Positions 589 to 30,726 of a stretch of 42,872 nucleotides of DNA are shown piece by piece (position 1 is the first letter of the stretch; each line of letters starts with the position of its first letter). The notes below the pieces were generated by a model. The model did no database searches. It worked only from the letters and a program-made list of their open reading frames with translations, and was not told the origin of the DNA. A program made the position numbers and the translations under genes. This DNA is from a virus (lineage: Duplodnaviria > Heunggongvirae > Uroviricota > Caudoviricetes): IMG/VR virus record IMGVR_UViG_2718217859_000008, positions 1-42,872 of that record. The stretch is one strand, 5' to 3'.

Positions 589-2678
589 TACTCAATGCGT
601 ACAAAAAGACCGATAAAGCCACGCTGAGTACCATAATTGTTACCCAGGCCCGAAAGCGCCGTGTAACGACCGGGGAAGTTGTATTCACCGGCACCGCCAA
701 TCACAACCTGCGGTGAGGATGCGTATGTCCCTGTATCACTAACCGGTGCACTCATGGCCAGAGGACCAAGACGGGAACCCGGCACAGTATCACCGAGTCC
801 CAGAGAAGCATTTTCACCAAAACTTTCTCCCTGATATACCGCCATAATCGGCACACCGACGGCCGGGTATTGGTAATATGAGAACGGACCATTACCGGCG
901 GTTGAGGACATCAGATATGCCAGGGAGTTGCCGTCATACACAATAAGGCTTGATGTTGCATTCCAGCTGTTACCACTGTAGCGATAACGCATACAATGTA
1001 TGCTGTGCTCATCCTCGTAATACTGGTTGTAGTACAGCAGCGTTTTGAATTTACGCGCTGAGTCTGAACCATCGTTATCAGAGGGTGACCACATCACATC
1101 AATGATACCGTTAAATTTCGTGGTGCCCACCAGCAGCGTGGAGGAGTCCGCAATACTGACCGCATAACGCCCCGGGGTGACTGTCTGCAGCCATATAACG
1201 AAATCAGCCTGTCCGTTAAATGACAGAGCTTCGGCGCTGGTGAATGCCTGTCCAAACCCATACATCCCGGACAGGGCCAGCCTGCCCGGTGTGCGGTCAC
1301 GGATATCACTCTGGGGTTCCATCGTCGCAGCCGCGCTCAGCTCAAGCTCCGTGCGCATGGCTTCAGCCGTGTCATGCGCCAGCAATGCGCGGCCCTTCTC
1401 TGACAGCAGAGACAGTGAGGCATTCCCGTCCGTATTGAAGTACAGAAGATTATCTGCCCGTTGCGTCAGTGCGCTGATTGCCGTTAAGACGTCATTAAGC
1501 GGTTGTTTGCCTGCCAGCGCGTTTGTGATTGTCGTCGCAAAGTTCGGGTCATTGCCCAGCGCCGCTGCCAGCTCGTTCAGGGTGTCCAGAACTTCCGGCG
1601 ATGAGCCAACCAGCGCAGCAAGCAGTTTGCGCACAAACGCTGCGTTCGCTGCTTCCAGACCGGCGGCATCATCCGGTGGGGTTGGGGTGGTTGGGGTGCC
1701 GGTGAAGGCCGGGCTGTCCAGTGGCGCTTTTGTTTTCGTCTCGTCCATGACGGTTTTGACAGCCTTTGGCGTGGCAGCCAGTTCCTCGCTGTCGTTGTCC
1801 GTATCACTACACAGTTGCACCAGACCTTTTTCTGTCGTGGAGGCATTTGTTGCATTCAGGTCATCAACTATCTGCTGCGCCTCATCCCTGTACTGTTTCG
1901 CTTCCTGCGCATTGCCTGCACCTGCATCCTGGCTGGCTTTAGCCTGTCGGGCGTATTCAGCGGCGCTGTTTTCATGCCCGAGTGCAGCATTTGCTGCATT
2001 TTCCGCGCTGGTTGCAGCTGATGATGCGGCATTATGATAAAGGCGGGCACGTTCGGCGGCATCGACTGATTCATCCCGCGCTGTGCCTGATGACTGTGCG
2101 CTGTTTTCTGCCTCACCCGCAAAACGTTCCGCATCATCACGGGCCGTTGCGGTTGTCGTCACATCCTGTGCCGTCTGCTGTGCGTTTCCGGCTGCAGCTT
2201 CGGCGCTCTGCTGTGTCTGATTTTTTAGCTCTTCTGCCTCATCCTTACTAACCGCCGCAGATGTTGCTGCATTGATTGCATCATCAGCAGCTGTTTCTGC
2301 TCTCTCCCTGTCACTGACCACCTGCTCAGACAAGCGAAAAACGGTATTTATCATTTCCTCAAAACGCTTCATTACCTCAGGGCGTAAATCACCCTCCTTT
2401 GGTGCATCCAGAAAAGCATTCAGCGTATCCGGCTCATCTGTCGGTGCAACATAAATTTCCCCCGCCTTTACAGGAGGATGCCCTGAGCGGGACAAAAATA
2501 CATCATAAAATCCCGGCTCAGCATTAATAGTATACCCGCCATCACTTCCCGTAAGACAGGTTGCCACAATATTAACCACAACTGTCGGACTGGTTCTTCT
2601 GGCACGCAATTCAATCGCACAGTTTACGACAGGCTCACCCGCTCCGTCCTTCAGGACACCTGAAATCTTTACTGCCAT
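588..2678 (-). CDS. stf: side tail fibre protein Stf
   Basis: N-terminus MAVKISGVLKDGAGEPV matches the lambda Stf N-terminus as recalled; long Ala/Ser/Glu-rich shaft then Gly/Tyr-rich C-terminal domain; ATG at 2676-2678 with GGGGTG upstream (the track start at 2684 is GTG). Confidence 0.85.
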   Translation of the reverse strand: MAVKISGVLKDGAGEPVVNCAIELRARRTSPTVVVNIVATCLTGSDGGYTINAEPGFYDVFLSRSGHPPVKAGEIYVAPTDEPDTLNAFLDAPKEGDLRPEVMKRFEEMINTVFRLSEQVVSDRERAETAADDAINAATSAAVSKDEAEELKNQTQQSAEAAAGNAQQTAQDVTTTATARDDAERFAGEAENSAQSSGTARDESVDAAERARLYHNAASSAATSAENAANAALGHENSAAEYARQAKASQDAGAGNAQEAKQYRDEAQQIVDDLNATNASTTEKGLVQLCSDTDNDSEELAATPKAVKTVMDETKTKAPLDSPAFTGTPTTPTPPDDAAGLEAANAAFVRKLLAALVGSSPEVLDTLNELAAALGNDPNFATTITNALAGKQPLNDVLTAISALTQRADNLLYFNTDGNASLSLLSEKGRALLAHDTAEAMRTELELSAAATMEPQSDIRDRTPGRLALSGMYGFGQAFTSAEALSFNGQADFVIWLQTVTPGRYAVSIADSSTLLVGTTKFNGIIDVMWSPSDNDGSDSARKFKTLLYYNQYYEDEHSIHCMRYRYSGNSWNATSSLIVYDGNSLAYLMSSTAGNGPFSYYQYPAVGVPIMAVYQGESFGENASLGLGDTVPGSRLGPLAMSAPVSDTGTYASSPQVVIGGAGEYNFPGRYTALSGLGNNYGTQRGFIGLFVRIE

Positions 2679-2688
2679 ATTCACCCCA

Positions 2689-2715
2689 CAAAAAAGCCCG
2701 CCGGTTCCGGCGGGC
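2689..2715 (-). terminator. rho-independent terminator after the J-stf cargo pair
   Basis: 9-bp GC stem gcccgccgg/ccggcgggc (2696-2715) followed on the minus strand by TTTTTTG. Confidence 0.6.
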
Positions 2716-2768
2716 TGTGATTACATTCAGATTTTCTGTTTCATTTTGCCGTGATTTCGTTACAGCAC

Positions 2769-3560
2769 TTAACCGTTAACGTTCCTTATCTCCACAGGGT
2801 TATAATTCGTCGGTAAGCCGGATACATCCGCAACCATGACCTGGGTTTTCATTGAGCCAACCCAGCCTCCTGTCGGTGATATATCGAGATAAACACCTGT
2901 CGGTATTATGGATATATAGAGATTACCGTTACCGTCAAGATGACAACACTCATTATAGTAATATCCACCCTGTAAGGATGACTCAATCCAGCCCCTGCCC
3001 AGAGGCATTGATAATGCTGTGTTATTGACATCATCGGAAACATGCCCGACATTACTCCAGTTACTACCGCTCTCATGCCCTGAATGGTTTGGATATTGCG
3101 GTTCAAGCCATTTCACATCCCGTAATTTCAGAAAATACCACCCGGAATCAAATATAATTCCTCCTGAACCGTCAAACAGTTGCATACCGTATGAACTTCG
3201 CTCCGGCGGTATCCACTTGTCAAAAATATAATACTGAACCGTGCCAATATTTATATTCCACCATTTAAACACGTCTATACTTGTCACCGATATATATGTT
3301 CCGGGATTAACAAAATCAGGGGACAGCTTATTGACCCCGGTTTTTTGTGTCAGCCTCGAATTATTTGTATTCATCTTCAGAAACAATAAAGGACTGTTCA
3401 TTCCGGTTGTTATCAGACTGATTGCGCTCGTCGTGTTCCCGCCGGAGATAAAATGACCATTACTGAACTGACCGGCACTTCGCAAAACATAATTCACATC
3501 TTCCGCATCTGCCACTGTCAGTCCATAGTCATTAATTAGCTGAATGCCATAACCGCTCAT
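2769..3560 (-). CDS. hypothetical protein (263 aa), Gly/Asn/Tyr-rich, AT-richer than flanks
   Basis: ATG at 3558-3560 overlaps the stop of the upstream ORF (ATGA); the track start at 3578 is TTG; no recognised family. Confidence 0.5.
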   Translation of the reverse strand: MSGYGIQLINDYGLTVADAEDVNYVLRSAGQFSNGHFISGGNTTSAISLITTGMNSPLLFLKMNTNNSRLTQKTGVNKLSPDFVNPGTYISVTSIDVFKWWNINIGTVQYYIFDKWIPPERSSYGMQLFDGSGGIIFDSGWYFLKLRDVKWLEPQYPNHSGHESGSNWSNVGHVSDDVNNTALSMPLGRGWIESSLQGGYYYNECCHLDGNGNLYISIIPTGVYLDISPTGGWVGSMKTQVMVADVSGLPTNYNPVEIRNVNG

Positions 3561-3928
3561 CGGTGGTAAACCCCACAATGAACATCCACACCGCCAACAG
3601 CCAGGAGATACCCCAAATCATCAGGATATGAAACATGTCTTGCTGTATAGGTTAAGGTGACGCTGTTACCGTTGATGATAATATCCGGTGCCACCGGATA
3701 CCATACCCTGCCGGAAGGCACCGTAATCCCCTTCCGTGTCACACAATGTGTGAATGGGGTTCCATTGTTAAAACTGACACCAAATGTCACTGACCACGGG
3801 ATATTTGATGCCAGTGCTTCAATGATCGGAACATGATATGAGAATAAACGTCTGCACATAATTGCAGACGTATCCGTAACCACCCTGCCCGTTGCATCCA
3901 TGATTTGCCAGCCATATTGCAATGACAT
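3557..3928 (-). CDS. hypothetical protein (123 aa) immediately 3' of J
   Basis: Starts 9 nt after the J stop; stop TGA overlaps the ATG of the next ORF; no recognised family. Confidence 0.5.
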   Translation of the reverse strand: MSLQYGWQIMDATGRVVTDTSAIMCRRLFSYHVPIIEALASNIPWSVTFGVSFNNGTPFTHCVTRKGITVPSGRVWYPVAPDIIINGNSVTLTYTARHVSYPDDLGYLLAVGGVDVHCGVYHR

Positions 3929-3937
3929 ATTCGCTCC

Positions 3938-6900
3938 TCAGAATAACCTGCCCATTCTCACCCGAATGACATTGTTTTCATCATCGACCCTGAAGCAGTT
4001 CAGTTCCCGGCTCAGATCCCAGCCTCCCTGTCCCCTGACTTCAAATCCCGAAGAACGAAGAACCCCCGTAATTTCCGCAAAATCAATCGTCGCCCTGGAC
4101 ATGAAAACCTCATTCAGGAACAGCTGATCCCCCTGAGCCACAAACAAGGGTGTTGTATTACCATTCGCAGGATTAACCATCGCAATCCTGTCTGCCGCCA
4201 GCAGCACCTGGCTCTGCATACCGTCAGGGGTGTTCTCAATACCGGCACCGATACCCGCAATATAAAGGCGACCATCCTGCATCTGCTGCAGTTTCACGGC
4301 CCACATACTGTTCAGGTTATTACTGGTGTCCGTCTGAACCTTTTGTATCTGCTGGATGGTGGCCTCCTGATCTCCCAGCTTCTGGTCCGTTGTCGTCATG
4401 ATTTCACTGCTTTTTTGATCCACATACTGGCGAACCTGCGCTATCTGGCGTGCATTCTCCTCATTACTCTGACTGACCGTCTGCGTGAGTTCGCTGCTGA
4501 CGTTATCCACTCTCTGGCTCACCTGTGATATACCCAGTGACAGCTCATCATTTTTTTTCGCAACCAGCTGTGTGAGGCTGTTTTCTGTCTCCCCGATTTT
4601 TTGGGTCACTTCAGCAATATCACTCTCTATCTGCTGATTGATCTCATCCTCCAGTTGCTCAACTTCACTGCGCAATGCCGAGGCATTAATACGATCGTTC
4701 AGCTCCTGCCCCAGCAGGGTGCTGTTTATTTTCCCTTCAAAAAAATGGAGATATTTCTCAGCATCGTTACCCGGCTGGCCAACAGCCTCCACAAATGCCG
4801 ATTTGCCGACGGTATTCACACTGCGAACGTAAAAATAATAATTATTGCCCGGCTCAATATCCGGTCCGGAGGCTATCCAGTACAGCGCCGTACCAAGATA
4901 ACGCGCGCTGATTTCAACCTGCCTGATATCGATAATCCGCGTTTCCGATAACCAGAACTCAAACTGTACCGTCGGGTCATATACAGCCAGTTTCGGGACC
5001 GCCGTTATCTGAAAATACCCCGGTATCAGTTCAATAGTGACAGGCGCGGCCGGTGCCGCAATCCGGAACGATACCGACGCCGGATCGCCCTGCTGCCCCC
5101 ACGCATTTACCGCCCGGACTGTCAGCCTGTAGTTCCCTAGCGCCAGTTGCCTGAAGCGGTATGTGGTTTCCGTCGTCCGGGCCGTGCTGACCAGCCGCTC
5201 ACTGCCGTCATCCGCTGTTACGGTCAGACGGAGCAGGAAGCTCACGCCCTTCACCACCTTCGGCGTGTCCCAGCGCGCCAGCACCTGATATTCCCCGCTG
5301 TCTGCGGTGACTTCGGCGGTCAGGTGCTGCACCGCTGGCGGCGTGACACCATTCACCGTGCCGCTCTGGTCGCCGTCAAAGTACGCCCCGTTATCCACGA
5401 TGGCCTCTTTTTCCGGTACATGCTGCACGGCGGTGATGGCATACGTGCCGTCGTCGTTCTCACGGATACTCACGCAGCGGAACAGGCGCTGGCGCAGCGT
5501 CGGCAGCTTCAGCCCCCACACGCTGTATTCTGCAACGCCGTCAGGAACACGGCTCACTTTCACCTTCATGCCGTCGGTGACGGACTGAACCTCCACGCTG
5601 ACCGGATTGCCATTTCCGTCAACCAGGCTTATCAGCGTGGTGCCGGAGGATGGCAGCGTGATTTCACGGTCGAGCGTCAGCGTCCGGGTCTGGCTGTTCA
5701 CCGCCAGCACGCGACCACCGATGCTGATACCCGCATAGTCATCATCGCAGATTTCAATGATATCGCCCGGCACATGGCGAAGCCCTTCGGCACCCACGCT
5801 GAAGTCCACGGTCTGCGTTTCCAGCAGTTCCGTTTTAATCAGCCACAGCCCGGCGCGGTGTGCCTGCCCCCGGCTGGTACAGCCAAAGGCATCCATCTTC
5901 GTGACGTTACGACCGTAACGGGCAATGGCCTGCGTGTCCTCCACAAGCTCTGTCGCCGTCTCCCAGCCGTTGTCCGGGTCAATCCAGTTCACCTCAACAG
6001 CATTATGGCGGTCCTTCAGGGCGCTGAAGCTGTAGCGGAACGGCGCGCCGTCATCCGGCATCACCACATTACTGCGGTTATAGGTCCACACCTTATCCGA
6101 CGGCCGGTCCTGCACGAACGTCAGCGTCTGCCCGTTCCATACCGGCATACAGCGCATCGCCGAGCAGAAATCACTGAGCACATCCCACGCCTTACGCTGC
6201 GTGGTCAGGTAAGCATTACAGGTGATGCGTGGCTCCGTGCCACCAAAGCCGTCAGGCACCGACTGGTCGCAATGCTGGCCGATGACATACAGCGCCCATT
6301 TATCCACATCCGCCGCACCAAGACGTTTCCCCATGCCGTAGCGCGGATGGGTCAGCATATCCCACAGACACCAGGCCATGTTGTTGCTGTATGCCGGTTT
6401 AAACGTTCCGTCCCAGATACCGCTGTATTGCCGCGTCTGCGGGTTATAGTTCGACGGCACCTGCAGAATGCGCCCGCGAAGATGATAATTACGACTCACC
6501 TGCTGGCTGCCGAACTGCTCCGAGTCCACCTGTACACCGACCAGTGCCGTGTTCGGGTAGCCCTGTTTCACATCGATGATTTCGGTGTATGACGACCAGA
6601 GCGTTTTGTTCTGCAGCTGGTCTGTAGTGCTGTCCGGCGTCATCCTGCGCATCCGGATACTGAACGGGCGCGGCGGCAGGTTACCCACCACCACCGAGGC
6701 CAGATACTGTGAGGTGGTTTTTCCCTTAATGGTGATGTCTTTTTCCGTCACCCAGCCACCGTTACGTTGTATCTGAACCAGCAGGCGGACTTCCGACGGA
6801 TTCCGGTCCCCCTTTGAGGTGGTTTCCACCAGTGCCTGCACACCGAAGGTAAAGCGCAGACGGTCGATGTTTGCAGACGTGATGGTCCGGGTAATCGGCG

Positions 6901-7192
6901 TGTCGTACTTCACTTCCGTACCCAGCACCGTCTCGGAGCCGGAGGATTCAAATCCCTCCGGCGGTGTCTGCTCCTGCTCACCTGCCCGGAACACCACCGT
7001 GACACCGGAGATATTGGTATTCCCCTCACTGTCCAGCACCGGCGTACTGTTCAGCAGCACGCTTTTTAATCCATCCACCGGACCTTCAACCGGCCCTTCG
7101 CTGATGGCATCGATCACACTCAGCAACTGCGTGGACTTCAGGTTATCCTTCGCTTCGCGCGGGGTATGCCCCTTACTGCTTCCTTTACCCAT
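3938..7192 (-). CDS. J: tail tip / host specificity protein J (1084 aa)
   Basis: N-terminus [34 protein letters not shown] and long stretches match lambda J as recalled; the C-terminal ~250 aa carry a heptad-like segment and a short distinct end. Confidence 0.95.
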
Positions 7193-7204
7193 TCCTCACA
7201 CTCC

Positions 7205-7234
7205 ATAAACGACAAAGCCGCCCAAAAGGCGGCT
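7205..7234 (-). terminator. rho-independent terminator after the lipoprotein gene
   Basis: Stem agccgcc/ggcggct (7216-7234) with loop caaaa, followed on the minus strand by TTGTCGTTTAT. Confidence 0.5.
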
Positions 7235-7258
7235 CATGAGTTACGGCAGGATTAACTA

Positions 7259-7597
7259 TTATTTACATGCATTAACACTATCAGCAAAAATTTTTGGCGT
7301 TAATGCTGGTACGCGTTCATAAAGAGTAAAACTACTGCCATTTCCTGCTTTTTTGATATCAAGCACAACATCGTACCCACCCATAGCCTGTGGAACTAAA
7401 AGGCTTACCCCATTCTCAATAGGAAGGGATGTTATAGGTGTTCCATTACCAGCCCATTGTCTGGATATGCAGCCTGACAATTCATCAATATTTTTTAATG
7501 AATTACCTTCCATTACAGGTTTTCCGGATTTTACGTAATCCAAAGATTTACATCCTGTTAAGGCAATAATCGTGCAGAATAAAATCGTTTTGTTCAT
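7259..7597 (-). CDS. putative lipoprotein (112 aa) inserted between tail genes I and J
   Basis: ATG at 7595-7597; N-terminus MNKTILFCTIIALTGCKS has a hydrophobic signal and an LTGC lipobox; AT-rich 72-bp upstream spacer; terminator downstream. Confidence 0.6.
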   Translation of the reverse strand: MNKTILFCTIIALTGCKSLDYVKSGKPVMEGNSLKNIDELSGCISRQWAGNGTPITSLPIENGVSLLVPQAMGGYDVVLDIKKAGNGSSFTLYERVPALTPKIFADSVNACK

Positions 7598-7669
7598 ATA
7601 GCTAACCAACAGAATAATTATCAGTATTCGATATAAATATTAAATCAGTTAAAACATGAGTAAATAATA

Positions 7670-8311
7670 TTACCGCCCAATTACCACAACCTGACCACCA
7701 TCCCCTTCATCTGCCGTGCTGATCTCCTGAGATGCCACACGTGACCCCACGCGCATTTCACCGTACAGAACAGGCAGGACATTGCCCTGGGCAACCATGT
7801 TATCCAGCGAGGAGAAATAGGTGTTCTGTTTGCCGTTATCCGTTGTCTGTGTACGTGGAGTTTTGGGTTTAGGGGCCAGCATCTGTGCAACACCACCAAG
7901 CGTCATCGCTGCCCCCATAGAAAAGAGAATGTCACTGAAAGCGATACTGATTCCCGGCATCCAGATTGCCGTAGCAATCAGCGCCGCACCCAGCACTGCC
8001 TGAAAAACACCGCCACTTTTGGCACCCGCCAGACGCGGTACGATGTGGATCACGGCACCATTTGCCAGCGGCTCATTAAGACGGGCAGATAATTCGTTTT
8101 CGCCTGCATCACGCCCGGCAATGCGCACCTGATACCAGCCCTCATTCAGTTTCTGGCGAAACGACGGTAGCTGCGTGGCCAGCGCCCGGATGGCTTCGGC
8201 TCCCGTTTTCACACGAAGGTCGATGCGGCGGCCAAATCGTTGCAAATCCCCGTAAAGGCAGATGCGTGCCATGCCCGGTGACGCCAGAGGGAGTGTGTGC
8301 GTCGCTGCCAT
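7670..8311 (-). CDS. I: tail assembly protein I
   Basis: MAATHTLPLASPGMARICLYGDLQRFGRRIDLRVKTG and C-terminal EISTADEGDGGQVVVIGR match lambda gpI as recalled. Confidence 0.9.
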   Translation of the reverse strand: MAATHTLPLASPGMARICLYGDLQRFGRRIDLRVKTGAEAIRALATQLPSFRQKLNEGWYQVRIAGRDAGENELSARLNEPLANGAVIHIVPRLAGAKSGGVFQAVLGAALIATAIWMPGISIAFSDILFSMGAAMTLGGVAQMLAPKPKTPRTQTTDNGKQNTYFSSLDNMVAQGNVLPVLYGEMRVGSRVASQEISTADEGDGGQVVVIGR

Positions 8312-8952
8312 TTGTCGGTATACCTCTCTCGTTTGCTCAGTTGTTCAGGAATATGGTGCAGCAGCTCGCCGTCACCACAGTAAATGGCGGCATGATTCGG
8401 CACAGATGAACCAAAACAGCACAGCAGCACATCGCCCGGCTGCGCCGCTGACAACGGCACCTGATACAGCCCTGTGGCCTCCAGATTATCCAGATAGAGA
8501 TTCTGACCGTTACGCCACCAGTCATCCCCGCGATGAAAATCCGGCATCTCTATCCCCGCCAGATGATAAGCATCCCGGAACAGCGTGTAACAGTCCGTCA
8601 CCCCGTGCTCAAAGAGCCGCCCTGTAAGATGCGGCACACAGCGGAACTTGTGAATCGCCCCCCGGCAGACCAGCCACCACGGCAAATCACTCTGCACCTG
8701 CAGCCGTCTGTCAGCCTCGCTCAGCCAGGGCAGGCCACCGGGGTGGCTGTGGACCAGCGCCATAATCTCACCCTGCATCTCTGCCCGCAGCCAGTCCTCC
8801 GGCGACATCCGGAAATACGCCTCCGGCTCACCGGAGATATTCACGCAGGGAAGATACCTGTCTTCCTCCGGCGTTCTCACCACGAAGCCGCACGATTCCG
8901 CAGGCGCACACCGCCGGGCGTGCGCCAGAATCGCTGATTCTGTCTGTGTCAT
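8209..8952 (-). CDS. K: tail assembly protein K
   Basis: MTQTESAILAHARRCAPAESCGFVV and HSHPGG motif match lambda gpK as recalled; the ORF end overlaps the I start by about 100 nt, so the 3' limit is uncertain. Confidence 0.85.
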   Translation of the reverse strand: MTQTESAILAHARRCAPAESCGFVVRTPEEDRYLPCVNISGEPEAYFRMSPEDWLRAEMQGEIMALVHSHPGGLPWLSEADRRLQVQSDLPWWLVCRGAIHKFRCVPHLTGRLFEHGVTDCYTLFRDAYHLAGIEMPDFHRGDDWWRNGQNLYLDNLEATGLYQVPLSAAQPGDVLLCCFGSSVPNHAAIYCGDGELLHHIPEQLSKRERYTDKWQRRTHSLWRHRAWHASAFTGICNDLAAASTFV

Positions 8953-9656: not shown

Positions 9657-9985
9657 CAGTTCACCACCTGTTTAAACTCTGCGCTGAACTCAACACGCAA
9701 CATACTGACCCGCGACGTCCATTTTGCGCAGGTCACCTTTATCTGCCGCCAGTCATAAGGCGGCGTCCACAGAAAGGCTTTCCAGCCTCCGTGCTCTGCC
9801 AGAAACGATTCCAGCGCCGTGGCCTCCCAACGGGGGACAGAAATCGTCACGCTGTACGTTTTCAGGTTGGCATTCAGCCCGGCAGGCGCGCGCTGGGAGT
9901 AACCATCACCAAAGCGCACCTCCCTGACGGAAGGAGCCGAAGCCACATCCATACCCGGTTTCACTTTCCAGCGGAAGGTTTTCAT
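9656..9985 (-). CDS. M: minor tail protein M
   Basis: 109 aa, MKTFRWKVKPGMDVASAPSVREVRFGDGYSQRAP, lambda gpM-like. Confidence 0.9.
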   Translation of the reverse strand: MKTFRWKVKPGMDVASAPSVREVRFGDGYSQRAPAGLNANLKTYSVTISVPRWEATALESFLAEHGGWKAFLWTPPYDWRQIKVTCAKWTSRVSMLRVEFSAEFKQVVN

Positions 9986-12525
9986 CGCCCACCTCCGGAG
10001 AACAGACCACCATCACGCATCTGCCCGGTCACGACATCCATTGCCGCCTTACGGGCTACGTCATAAACAGCCTTCAGCGCCTGTGGCCCTATCTGACCGT
10101 TCGTGCCGTCGTTATTAATCACCACATGGTTATTCTGCTCAAACTTCCCGGACGCCTGCGACCGACTGTCCGCCATGCTGCCCGGTGTACCGACATAACC
10201 GCCGGTGGCATAGCCGCGCATCAGCCGGTAAAGATTCCCCACGCCAATCCGGCTGGTTGCCTCCTTCGTGAAGACAAATTCACCACGGTGAACAATCCCC
10301 GCAGGCTCGTATTTGCCGCCAGTACCTGTAAAACCACCACCGGCAAACCCAATGGCACTACCGATACTCCCGACAATCCCCACCATTGCCTGCTTAAGCA
10401 GAATTTCTGTCATCATGGACAGCACGGAACGGGTGAAGCTGCGCCAGTTCTGTTCACTGCCGGTCAGCATCGCCGCCATATTCTGTGCAATACCGTCAAC
10501 GGTCTGCGTGGCCGCGCTTTTAACCTGCGAAAAACTGTCCATGGCACTTTCCGCCCACTCACCCCAGCCGGATTTCAGCCCGGCCATCCAGCTTCCACGA
10601 AGCTGCTCCTCCGCAGACCAGGTGTTCTTCAGTGCAGATGTGGCCTTCGCCAGCGCATCCGGATTATCACCGTACACGTCACGAAGGCGCTGCTCTTCCG
10701 ACTCCCGCTGCGCCTGACGGTCGGTGAGGCCGCGGGCTTTTGCGCTGATGGCGGCCTGCTTCGCGCTCTGCTGCTGTTCAAACCGCGCCGCCTGCTGTGC
10801 CAGCTCATTCAGCCGTTTCTGATGTTCAACCTTGTCGCCCAGGTCAGCCAGCTGGCGTTTGTACTCCAGCGTCTCGTCTTTATGCGCCAGCAGGGATTTC
10901 TCCTGTGCAGACAGCCGGCGACGTTGCGCCGCCTCCTCCAGTACCGCGAACTGACTCTCCGCCTTCCACAAATCCCGGCGCTGCTGGCTGATTTTCTCAT
11001 TCGCACCGGCATGCTTCTCCAGCGTCCTGAGCTCAGTTTCAAGCGCCAGCATGGCTGCATGCGCCCGGTCTTCCTGACGCTCCCCGGCTGACACTTTGAC
11101 ACCTGACGACTTCGGTTTTTTCAGCGTCGATTCATAATCCTTTTTCGCCGCCGCCATCAGCGTGTTGTAATCCGCCTGCAGGATTTTCCCGTCTTTCAGG
11201 GCCTTATTCAGCTCTTCCTGCCGGTCAGTATATTTCTCCAGTGGCGTCAGCAGGCGCTCATACGCCTTCTGCGCCTCTCCGGTATACTTCAGCTGTGACG
11301 CCTCACGCTCAGCCCGGTCCCTTGCCGCCAGTTCACCGGCTTTTTCCATATCCGACTGCAGCGTGGCTGCCGCCAGCCCCAGACGGGCATTTTCACGGTC
11401 ATCCCATGCACCCTGAAGGTTGGCACGGAAAGAGGAGGTCTTTCCCCGACGCTGACTCCGGCTCTGGTACCACTGCCATTTTTTATCCGCCTCATCAAAT
11501 GCCTTCTGCGCACTGGCGAGCATATCCGCTGAGGATTCAGGACGACCGATATCCAGGATGGCATCCCACATCAATTTGAATGCCTTCCCGGTTTTATCCG
11601 CCCAGGTTTCCAGCGTCCCCATGTTTTCTTTCAGGCGACGGGTCTGCTCATCAAAGCCTTTTGTGGCGATATCGTTCGCCGCCTGTAAGGCCCCTGCCTC
11701 ATCCCCCGAACGCTGCAGCTGCGCAACATACGCAATCTGCTCTGCCGTCACGTTACGGAACTGGCGCGCCATAGCCATCAGTCCCGACGTCGGGTCGGTG
11801 GTCAGCTTTCCAAAAGCCTCTGCAACCTTGTCCACTTCCACACCGGATGCAGAAGCAAAACGCGCCACACTCTGGTTGATGGCATCAAACTGTTCACCAC
11901 CACGCACACCGGCATTCACCAGGGCTGCCAGTGACTCACTCGCCTGGTTAAACGTCAGCCCTGCTGCCTGTCCGGCTCTGGAGAGCGTCAGCATGCGATC
12001 GGCAGTCAGTCCGGACTGATTACCGGAAAGAACCAGGGTTTTATTAAACGCTGAAAGCGTGGAATCCCCCTGGTACCAGGCATACGCCAGCGCACCTGTC
12101 GCCACCGCCAGCGAGGTGACCCCGACCATCGGCAGGGTGATCGCACCGGCAAGCCCCCTGAACATGGGGATCATCCCGCCGAAGGCGTCCTTCACCTGAC
12201 CGCCCTGTTGCAGCAGGATCAGCCAGGGATTCTGACCACCGGCAAGCTGCGTGGCGATATCCGTAAACTGTGCAGGCAGGGTACGCATGGCCGCTTTATA
12301 CTGCCCGACGGAAATCCCGGCTTTTTGTGCAGCCAGCGCCTGACGGCTCAGCCCCTGTTCAACGGCAGTGGCCTGTTTCTTAAAAGACTGGCTGACACGC
12401 CCGGCCATCAAATCCGCAAGGTCACTGGTTTCACCCAGTTCTTTCTTTACCCGTGCAGCCTCTTCAGAAAAACGGGTTGAATCCAGTGTAAGAACAGCTG
12501 TCAGATCGGCAAAATTACCCGCCAT
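9982..12525 (-). CDS. H: tail tape measure protein H
   Basis: About 850 aa, largely collinear with lambda gpH as recalled; ATG at 12523-12525 preceded by AGGAGG (the track start at 12534 is GTG). Confidence 0.95.
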   Translation of the reverse strand: MAGNFADLTAVLTLDSTRFSEEAARVKKELGETSDLADLMAGRVSQSFKKQATAVEQGLSRQALAAQKAGISVGQYKAAMRTLPAQFTDIATQLAGGQNPWLILLQQGGQVKDAFGGMIPMFRGLAGAITLPMVGVTSLAVATGALAYAWYQGDSTLSAFNKTLVLSGNQSGLTADRMLTLSRAGQAAGLTFNQASESLAALVNAGVRGGEQFDAINQSVARFASASGVEVDKVAEAFGKLTTDPTSGLMAMARQFRNVTAEQIAYVAQLQRSGDEAGALQAANDIATKGFDEQTRRLKENMGTLETWADKTGKAFKLMWDAILDIGRPESSADMLASAQKAFDEADKKWQWYQSRSQRRGKTSSFRANLQGAWDDRENARLGLAAATLQSDMEKAGELAARDRAEREASQLKYTGEAQKAYERLLTPLEKYTDRQEELNKALKDGKILQADYNTLMAAAKKDYESTLKKPKSSGVKVSAGERQEDRAHAAMLALETELRTLEKHAGANEKISQQRRDLWKAESQFAVLEEAAQRRRLSAQEKSLLAHKDETLEYKRQLADLGDKVEHQKRLNELAQQAARFEQQQSAKQAAISAKARGLTDRQAQRESEEQRLRDVYGDNPDALAKATSALKNTWSAEEQLRGSWMAGLKSGWGEWAESAMDSFSQVKSAATQTVDGIAQNMAAMLTGSEQNWRSFTRSVLSMMTEILLKQAMVGIVGSIGSAIGFAGGGFTGTGGKYEPAGIVHRGEFVFTKEATSRIGVGNLYRLMRGYATGGYVGTPGSMADSRSQASGKFEQNNHVVINNDGTNGQIGPQALKAVYDVARKAAMDVVTGQMRDGGLFSGGGR

Positions 12526-12919
12526 AGCGTACACCTCCTGGAATTCCCTCAGACACCATCATCAGCATGGCTTCATCCTCTGTACTGCTCCGCATGTCAT
12601 CACTGACCGTAACGATTTCCTTCCCGTCAGCCCCAAAGCGGACACCACCAGAAAGTCCTGCCGCTTTCCGCATCAGCATATCGTCCTCATCCGGCATCTC
12701 CGTCTGCTCATCATCACGTCGGGGTGCAAGCAGACTGAAATCCGCCGGATGCATATCCGGATCGCAAAAAAACAGGCTGAGTACGGTGTACGTCAGCCCG
12801 GAAAAATGCATATCCAGCTGGGTATCGTGAAAATAATGCGTGCGGTAAAAACGGTGCCAGTCGGCATATTCGGTGGATGTCATCCCGGCAAGCATGGTGC
12901 GCCAGTCAGGCCTCCCCAT
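12515..12919 (-). CDS. T: T reading frame of the G-T tail assembly chaperone, reached by -1 frameshift from G
   Basis: Frame continues from the slippery heptamer GGGAAAG at the 3' end of G; translation MGRPDWRTML follows in the -1 frame. Confidence 0.8.
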   Translation of the reverse strand: MGRPDWRTMLAGMTSTEYADWHRFYRTHYFHDTQLDMHFSGLTYTVLSLFFCDPDMHPADFSLLAPRRDDEQTEMPDEDDMLMRKAAGLSGGVRFGADGKEIVTVSDDMRSSTEDEAMLMMVSEGIPGGVRYGG

Positions 12920-30377: not shown

Positions 30378-30533
30378 TTACTCCTCAGGTTCGTAAGCTG
30401 TGAAGACAGCGACCTCCGTCTGGCCGGTTCGGATTCGTACCTCGCAGAGGTCTTTCCTCGTTACCAGTGCCGTCACTATAACGGTTAAACAGATGACGAT
30501 CAGGGCGATTAACATCGCCTTTTGCTGCTTCAT
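30378..30533 (-). CDS. hok: Hok-family type I toxin (51 aa)
   Basis: MKQQKAMLIALIVICLTVIVTALVTRKDLCEVRIRTGQTEVAVFTAYEPEE matches HokD/RelF as recalled; AAGGAG 9 nt upstream of the ATG at 30531-30533. Confidence 0.9.
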   Translation of the reverse strand: MKQQKAMLIALIVICLTVIVTALVTRKDLCEVRIRTGQTEVAVFTAYEPEE

Positions 30534-30726
30534 AGCCTGCTTCTCCTTGCCTTTCGGCACGTAAGAGGCTAACCTACGTGTGCAAGTCATAGATATGGCC
30601 TCAGATTAATGTTAAGCGTCTTGCAGGACGCGTAATGTTAACTGGGGCTTTTCTCTGTCTGCCTTACGGCGGCATGCCCGAGGCAGATAGCCTCAAGCAC
30701 CCGCAGCAATTCTACTTAACTCTCGC

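Follow-up and report, generated by a model that had tools for sequence, protein, structure and literature searches.

A phrog_914 lipoprotein gene as an accessory insertion between tail genes I and J of a lambdoid Escherichia coli prophage

The DNA analyzed here (the window; 42,872 nt, IMG/VR record IMGVR_UViG_2718217859_000008) is a lambdoid E. coli prophage in which all tail genes lie on the minus strand. By sequence comparison, we show that positions 7236-7669, between tail genes I and J, represent an accessory cassette that the late tail operon acquired horizontally and that is composed of one ORF and a terminator-like hairpin. The ORF is a genuine, well-delimited accessory lipoprotein gene, and the family to which it belongs, phrog_914, is uncharacterized but widespread. 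By analogy with phage lipoproteins of tested activity, the most likely function of its product, which we put forward tentatively, is phage exclusion or a block to re-adsorption, exerted through a fixed target in the cell envelope.

The lipoprotein gene and its neighbors

The tail module of the window is ~87% identical to the tails of lambda-like and Stx phages. J carries five J-specific Pfam domains, and its N-terminal 800 aa are lambda-like and 96% identical to the J proteins of UTI89 and PhiR68_2. In strain 06-00048, 571 bases around the lipoprotein locus are 100% identical to the window, and the site adjoins potAB. The prophage of that strain is otherwise near-identical, with its tape-measure gene split by the IS21-family element ISEc10 (L001 12353-14604 versus window 9982-12534). 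The mechanically called I ORF of the window encodes 213 aa from its ATG, compared with 191 aa in the RefSeq call (L020 7413-7988), and it overlaps K by ~100 nt; the true I start is therefore uncertain.

Table 1 Features of the tail region discussed in the text (window positions).
Feature	Position	Strand	Details
Tail gene H	9982-12534	-	Tape measure, intact, 850 aa
Tail genes M, L		-
Tail gene K	8209-8952	-
Tail gene I	7670-8311	-	Upstream neighbor of the lipoprotein ORF; Pfam Lambda_tail_I, E = 1.3e-23; junction alignments
AT-rich spacer	7598-7669	-	72 nt between I stop codon and lipoprotein ORF; 20.8% GC
Lipoprotein ORF	7259-7597	-	112 aa; WP_001332187.1; phrog_914; ATG start
Signal peptide (residues 1-15)	7553-7597	-	MNK, then hydrophobic core; PS51257-type pattern; alignments
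Lipobox L13-T14-G15-C16	7550-7561	-	PS51257-type pattern; alignments
Conserved Cys43	7469-7471	-	In lipoprotein ORF
Conserved Cys111	7265-7267	-	In lipoprotein ORF
Terminator-like hairpin (7215-7235) and T-rich tail	7205-7235	-	Just before the J ribosome-binding site
Tail tip gene J	3938-7192	-	Downstream neighbor; FNIII-A_GpJ, Phage-tail_3, Ig_J, and Phage_Tail_Tip domains

The first-pass annotation had described a 112-aa gene with an LTGC lipobox between I and J, an AT-rich spacer upstream of it, and a hairpin before J, and all of these features are present, the hairpin with a T-run behind it (Table 1). The protein begins MNKTILFCTIIALTGC and continues KSLD. It fits the PROSITE PS51257-type lipoprotein rule (N-terminal positive residue, hydrophobic core, [LVI][ASTVI][GAS]C, and Cys at position 15-35) through K3, a hydrophobic core, L-T-G-C, and Cys16, leaving a mature lipoprotein of ~97 aa. 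The lipid Cys is followed by Lys rather than Asp, which predicts sorting to the outer membrane. A TTG four codons upstream lengthens the mechanical ORF, and homologs begin at the ATG; the Shine–Dalgarno sequence of the ORF is weak. The ORF is 36.9% GC with a GC3 of 0.26, compared with 57% GC in I and J and a GC3 of 0.68 in J, and the interval 7236-7669 as a whole is 34% GC versus 57% in I and J. Among 13 E. coli alleles, we counted 10 synonymous and 6 nonsynonymous polymorphic sites, giving a pN/pS of 0.17 (binomial p = 6e-4); by this measure, the alleles are under purifying selection. On sequence grounds, the ORF is a genuine, selected gene.

The I-J junction, its hairpin, and other insertion sites

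The lipoprotein gene is present in 336 of 5426 complete E. coli genomes (~6%), whereas its I/J flanks are present in more than 4000. Carriers include UTI89, EAEC 042, O104:H4, and APEC strains, as well as commensal and environmental isolates. Close relatives of the same J are among the prophages without the gene. The I-J spacer is 59 nt in the lambda-type phage PhiR68_2; a different one, of ~240 nt, is found in phage 1720a-02 and strain 09-00049, and neither spacer contains the lipoprotein gene. These gene-less junctions bear out the proposal that the gene is an accessory insertion between I and J, a proposal for which comparison with related prophages had been suggested as the check; they do not agree with the accompanying statement that I and J are normally contiguous. 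When the window was aligned with the gene-less lambda-type junction, homology ended at the I stop codon and restarted at the hairpin, which places the insert at ~7236-7669. The junction is thus a hot spot with three states, namely spacers of 59 nt and ~240 nt and a 477-nt interval that holds the lipoprotein gene (window 7193-7669; L004 4768-4826; L005 5302-5542; L028 6919-7161). In strain c1-17, an IS1 lies inside the region matching window 7150-7720, which extends from the end of I across the lipoprotein gene into the start of J.

Homologs of the gene occupy several other positions. Those with 48 to 59% identity sit at K|I in Klebsiella and Kluyvera prophages, at T|H in HK97-like Enterobacter prophages, and immediately upstream of I where a 4-kb antirepressor-type insert precedes the gene. 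Homologs of ~30% identity are found at K|I in phages Fraca and LMessi. One member of 28% identity is encoded within a tail module on the opposite strand, and another is at a prophage end beside integrase genes. In many lineages, the gene comes directly after K, which carries JAB and NlpC/P60 domains. The ~4-kb block between K and the lipoprotein-I pair occurs in metagenomic and genomic prophages (L014-L016, ~1400-5950); it encodes Arc-like repressors together with Bro-N, KilA-N/ANT, or pRha proteins of antirepressor type, and so represents a regulatory module inside a tail operon.

We considered whether the protein might be a component of the tail and ruled this out: its gene is polymorphic and varies in position, and export of the protein is predicted. 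Tails assemble in the cytoplasm, out of reach of an exported lipoprotein, and a role in the virion is therefore not expected. The earlier view that the gene is not a conserved tail component of this phage lineage agrees with these data.

The window hairpin has 9 pairs, 6 of them G-C, followed by TTTGTCGTTTAT, and its fold energy has a z-score of -2.66 relative to shuffled sequences. It reads GAGCCGCC-TTT-TGGGCGGCTT, then TGTCGTTTATGGAG. The spacer of the gene-less lambda-type junction contains a homologous hairpin, AAACCGCC-TCC-GGGCGGTTT, then TGTCGTTTATGGAG, and all three junction states keep a hairpin and T-run just before the J ribosome-binding site. A G+C-rich hairpin and T-run also follow the gene within ~40 nt in all nine phage-borne loci examined, with hairpin sequences that vary between lineages. 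In the gene-less phages examined, K and I overlap or abut with no spacer, so that at the K|I site the hairpin must have arrived with the gene. At the I-J site, either the gene would have been inserted just upstream of a pre-existing hairpin, or the short spacer would be the remnant of cassette loss; the short lambda-type hairpin may accordingly be an insertion target or a scar. A firm claim that the insert brought its terminator to I-J was rejected, as the gene-less junction has the same hairpin. The description of the gene as having its own terminator consequently stands insofar as a hairpin and T-run follow every phage-borne homolog examined, but not insofar as the window hairpin is homologous to that of the gene-less spacer.

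A standard scan found no sigma-70 promoter on the coding strand. In a lenient scan of the spacer, the best candidate scored 8/12, and 71% of shuffled sequences scored as well or better; no conserved motif was found upstream of homologs. The classical lambdoid moron, a concept of Hendrix and Juhala, consists of a promoter, a gene, and a terminator with deviant composition. Like a moron, the lipoprotein gene is a single extra gene among late genes, has low GC content and a terminator-like hairpin behind it, and is polymorphic among relatives. Unlike a moron, it has no promoter recognizable above chance, and its hairpin is common to junctions without the gene. The moron designation in the first-pass annotation is thus apt for an extra low-GC gene absent from relatives, but no promoter stands out above chance and the hairpin is shared.

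The phrog_914 family and its predicted fold

The window protein is a full-length match to phrog_914 (PHROGs v4, 'unknown function'), with residues 1-112 aligned to positions 1-118 of the 118-position profile (E = 7.3e-33, 114.5 bits), and RefSeq labels WP_001332187.1 a 'hypothetical protein'. The identical protein is encoded in strains 06-00048, UTI89, and O104:H4 2009EL-2071, and close homologs occur in Escherichia, Klebsiella, Enterobacter, Kluyvera, and Jejubacter. When 1.84 billion representatives were searched with a profile, ~125 homologous clusters were returned, nearly all about 112 aa in length. The lipoprotein pattern is present in 119 of 127 aligned family members. Asp occupies the +2 position in none of these 119, and 114 of them contain exactly three Cys residues: the lipid Cys, one usually 27 residues on, and a penultimate Cys. 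Searching 50,697 phage records with the window protein by tblastn gave only the two ~30%-identical matches in Fraca and LMessi. A profile search of genome contigs with a narrow family alignment gave one locus, and IMG/VR scans using three distant family members found no loci.

No Pfam family matched the window protein at E ≤ 1, and NCBIfam and PADLOC scans of the protein returned nothing matching. A Pfam scan of all 127 members yielded five single-member chance matches and no recurring family. In the literature, we found no paper mentioning WP_001332187.1; phrog_914 has no described function, structure, or paper.

An AlphaFold2 model built from the 127-sequence alignment (pLDDT 90.6, pTM 0.80) consists of the signal helix followed by a beta-alpha-beta4-alpha fold. 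Cys43 and Cys111 lie in the two helices of the model and probably form a disulfide. In a Foldseek search of the PDB, no match reached E ≤ 0.001, and the best was Flpp3 (E = 0.011). This Francisella lipoprotein of the DUF3568 family (PDB 6pny, 2mu4, and 9nlt) has the closest fold, at a TM score of ~0.48 and 6 to 12% identity, and TBP-like, KA1, and DUF302 folds resemble the model as well as Flpp3 does. Pfam DUF3568 was matched neither by the window protein at E ≤ 1 nor by any of the 127 members. The best BFVD matches were an uncharacterized Pseudomonas phage protein and an uncultured-phage 'lipoprotein'.

Some family members are chromosomal. The Shimwellia blattae member (CP001560, L022 5001-5339; 38% identity) lies between a yidB-like gene and ecotin, and the P0045 member (L099 5001-5342; 24% identity) lies among housekeeping genes; both have host-like GC content. 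Such members show the phage gene to derive from, or to be shared with, a cellular lipoprotein family. Since these members are ordinary chromosomal genes, they point to a general envelope role.

Possible functions of the lipoprotein

Known exclusion lipoproteins are generally inherited together with a matching receptor-binding protein. We examined linkage to the receptor-binding end of J in 58 IMG/VR and RefSeq loci with a near-identical, ungapped lipoprotein allele (two or fewer amino acid differences). M, L, K, I, and the N-terminal parts of J are >~90% identical in most of these loci, and the tape measure is of two types. The C-terminal 230 aa of J vary across the 58 loci and comprise a UTI89 type, a PhiR68_2 type, ~70%-divergent types, and the unrelated window type. 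The latter, found in one IMG/VR locus and strain 06-00048, is unlike the type in most other lipoprotein carriers. An identical lipoprotein (99 to 100%) hence accompanies at least four J C-terminal types, and the window J type also occurs without the lipoprotein gene, in strain 09-00049 and others. For both reasons, the gene does not track the receptor of its own prophage.

The unrelated C-terminal 230 aa of the window J are followed by two minus-strand ORFs, at 3557-3928 (123 aa) and 2769-3578 (269 aa). Positions ~2832-3703, covering most of both ORFs, are ~70% identical in DNA to the small siphophages vB_EcoS-IME253, ZL19, TR3, phiA2-1, and Rao1, and 2769-4630 looks like a swapped receptor-binding module. 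RefSeq annotates the window-type J as a pseudogene.

T5 Llp, which acts on FhuA (PMC9586334), and the ~6-kDa Rtp45, which acts on LptDE (PMC12685063), are phage lipoproteins that exclude other phages. The temperate coliphages mEp021 and mEp010, of the mEpimmI group, encode Lpp proteins within their structural gene clusters; experimentally, Lpp021 excludes the OmpA-using phages mEp021 and mEp515, and Lpp010 excludes lambda and other LamB-using phages (PMC11893012). Like T5 Llp, Rtp45, and Cor, the window protein is a small phage lipoprotein of the tail or host-recognition region, predicted to reside in the inner leaflet of the outer membrane and likely to contain a disulfide. Its location inside the structural gene cluster of a temperate coliphage is shared with Lpp021 and Lpp010. 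Unlike Llp, Rtp45, and Cor, it has a globular alpha/beta mature domain of ~97 aa (versus ~6 kDa for Rtp45), and its family is not tied to one receptor-binding module and has cellular homologs. It also differs from Lpp021 in placement, as the window gene is upstream of J and co-oriented, whereas the mEp021 gene, which encodes a 72-aa precursor, is downstream of J on the opposite strand.

The first-pass annotation had proposed a receptor-blocking protein, Cor- or Llp-like in function. By homology, the likeness covers the signal peptide and goes no further than the first residues beyond the lipid Cys. In hhalign comparisons, the family profile aligned with Fraca Cor over 30 columns only, comprising these segments, and with mEp021 Lpp over 20 signal-peptide columns only (40% probability). 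A profile search of PDB sequences matched T5 Llp (8a60 chain B) over the lipobox region only (E = 0.5), and structure searches returned no solved exclusion lipoprotein among the matches listed. Also counting against the proposal are the occurrence of an identical protein beside at least four J receptor-binding ends, the absence of a promoter above chance, and the chromosomal location of some members.

Our leading guess nevertheless remains exclusion. Arguing for it are the anatomy and composition of the locus, the lipoprotein features, the accessory status of the gene, selection, a confidently predicted fold, and the precedents: because the tested lipoproteins from siphophage tail or structural regions, Llp, Rtp45, Lpp021, and Lpp010, exclude phages, a similar role is suggested here. 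Several observations suggest otherwise, namely similarity restricted to the signal-peptide region, the lack of a PADLOC match, a larger size, and no co-inheritance with J; the absence of a promoter above chance and the existence of chromosomal members point in the same direction.

In the mechanism that we propose, the lipobox would direct processing of the precursor by signal peptidase II. The lipobox, the +2 rule, and the Cys pattern together predict an outer-membrane-anchored, periplasm-facing, disulfide-bonded alpha/beta domain of ~10.5 kDa. The minus-strand orientation of the gene ensures its transcription with the late genes in lytic growth; retention of a terminator after every phage-borne homolog examined suggests separate transcription in the lysogen as well, insulated from J. 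By analogy, the protein would act in the envelope, either to stop incoming phages or to keep progeny from re-adsorbing. Because the gene is not linked to the J end, its expected target is a fixed outer-membrane or periplasmic component and not a receptor matched to the J of the same prophage.

Nearly as likely as exclusion through a fixed target is a non-phage envelope or virulence role. Here, the protein would have no part in exclusion but would alter the envelope as a factor of lysogenic conversion, in the manner of Bor/Iss or Lom, and benefit the host through, for example, stress or serum resistance, colonization, or ligand binding in a Bet v 1-like fold. The chromosomal contexts of cellular homologs are consistent with such a factor, as are the failure of the gene to co-vary with the phage receptor-binding end, the pathogens among its carriers (UTI89, EAEC 042, O104:H4, and APEC), and the identity of the closest solved fold, that of the Francisella virulence lipoprotein Flpp3/DUF3568. 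That fold similarity is weak, however (TM ~0.48, 6 to 12% identity), and commensal and environmental isolates are carriers too. Conversion would also leave unexplained the repeated placement of the gene in tail modules, near host-recognition genes, in unrelated phages.

A stronger form of the exclusion reading is rather unlikely: that phrog_914 is a new class of outer-membrane lipoproteins excluding siphophages independently of the primary receptor. Such proteins might act on a conserved periplasmic step in the passage of the tail tip or tape measure, or on a fixed envelope partner. Such action would account both for the association of the gene with the conserved M-L-K-I-J(N) block, as opposed to the variable receptor-binding end, and for its capture by phages from a cellular lipoprotein family.

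Somewhat less probable still is a Cor/Llp-type blocker that binds, from the periplasmic side, the receptor for the prophage's own tail tip. An outer-membrane-sorted lipoprotein encoded beside J is what such a blocker would look like, and T5, Rtp, phi80-type Cor, and the mEp phages provide precedents (PMC9586334, PMC12685063, PMC11893012). Against it, the same lipoprotein (99 to 100%) is found beside J C-termini of the UTI89, PhiR68_2, ~70%-divergent, and window types, the window J type is found without the gene, and neither homology beyond the signal-peptide region nor, among the structure matches listed, fold likeness to Cor, Llp, or Lpp021 was detected.

We regard as improbable a helper that serves the lytic cycle only, whether by modulating the envelope at lysis or as an inhibitor of, or immunity factor for, the NlpC/P60 domain of K. 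Both here and in the enterobacterial tail-module loci examined, the gene lies within the late operon and reads in its direction; a promoter of its own was not found, and in many lineages it comes directly after K. However, the gene is absent from the majority of phages that have these K, I, and J genes and is thus dispensable for growth; one homolog is opposite in strand to the tail genes, a purely late gene needs no terminator behind it, and structure searches show no likeness to known peptidase immunity proteins. A decaying or selfish passenger without current function is very improbable: occasional frameshifted or truncated copies occur, and one copy adjoins an IS1, but the gene is under purifying selection (pN/pS 0.17, p = 6e-4), the protein is identical across mosaically different prophages, and 125 clusters preserve the lipobox and the Cys pattern.

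Small lipoproteins from siphophage tail regions are a classic route of phage receptor masking. Llp, Rtp45, Lpp021, and Lpp010, the solved or tested examples considered above, are tiny and tied to particular receptors. phrog_914 differs in that it is larger, confidently folded by prediction, common to cellular genomes, and uncoupled from the receptor-binding end of J. The family is widespread in prophages of Enterobacteriaceae, including those of UTI89, EAEC 042, and O104:H4. Either outcome, a new exclusion mechanism or a lysogenic-conversion factor, would give a function to a gene carried by ~6% of complete E. coli genomes.

A search for other RNA features of the window found no tRNA genes. 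A paper on an sRNA of prophage NC-SV was considered and set aside as unrelated, since svsR lies in cI. Two Rfam matches scored above the gathering threshold (30528-30702 and 25992-26166, both on the minus strand); they are the sok antitoxin RNA of a hok/sok-type module and the sRNA STnc100.
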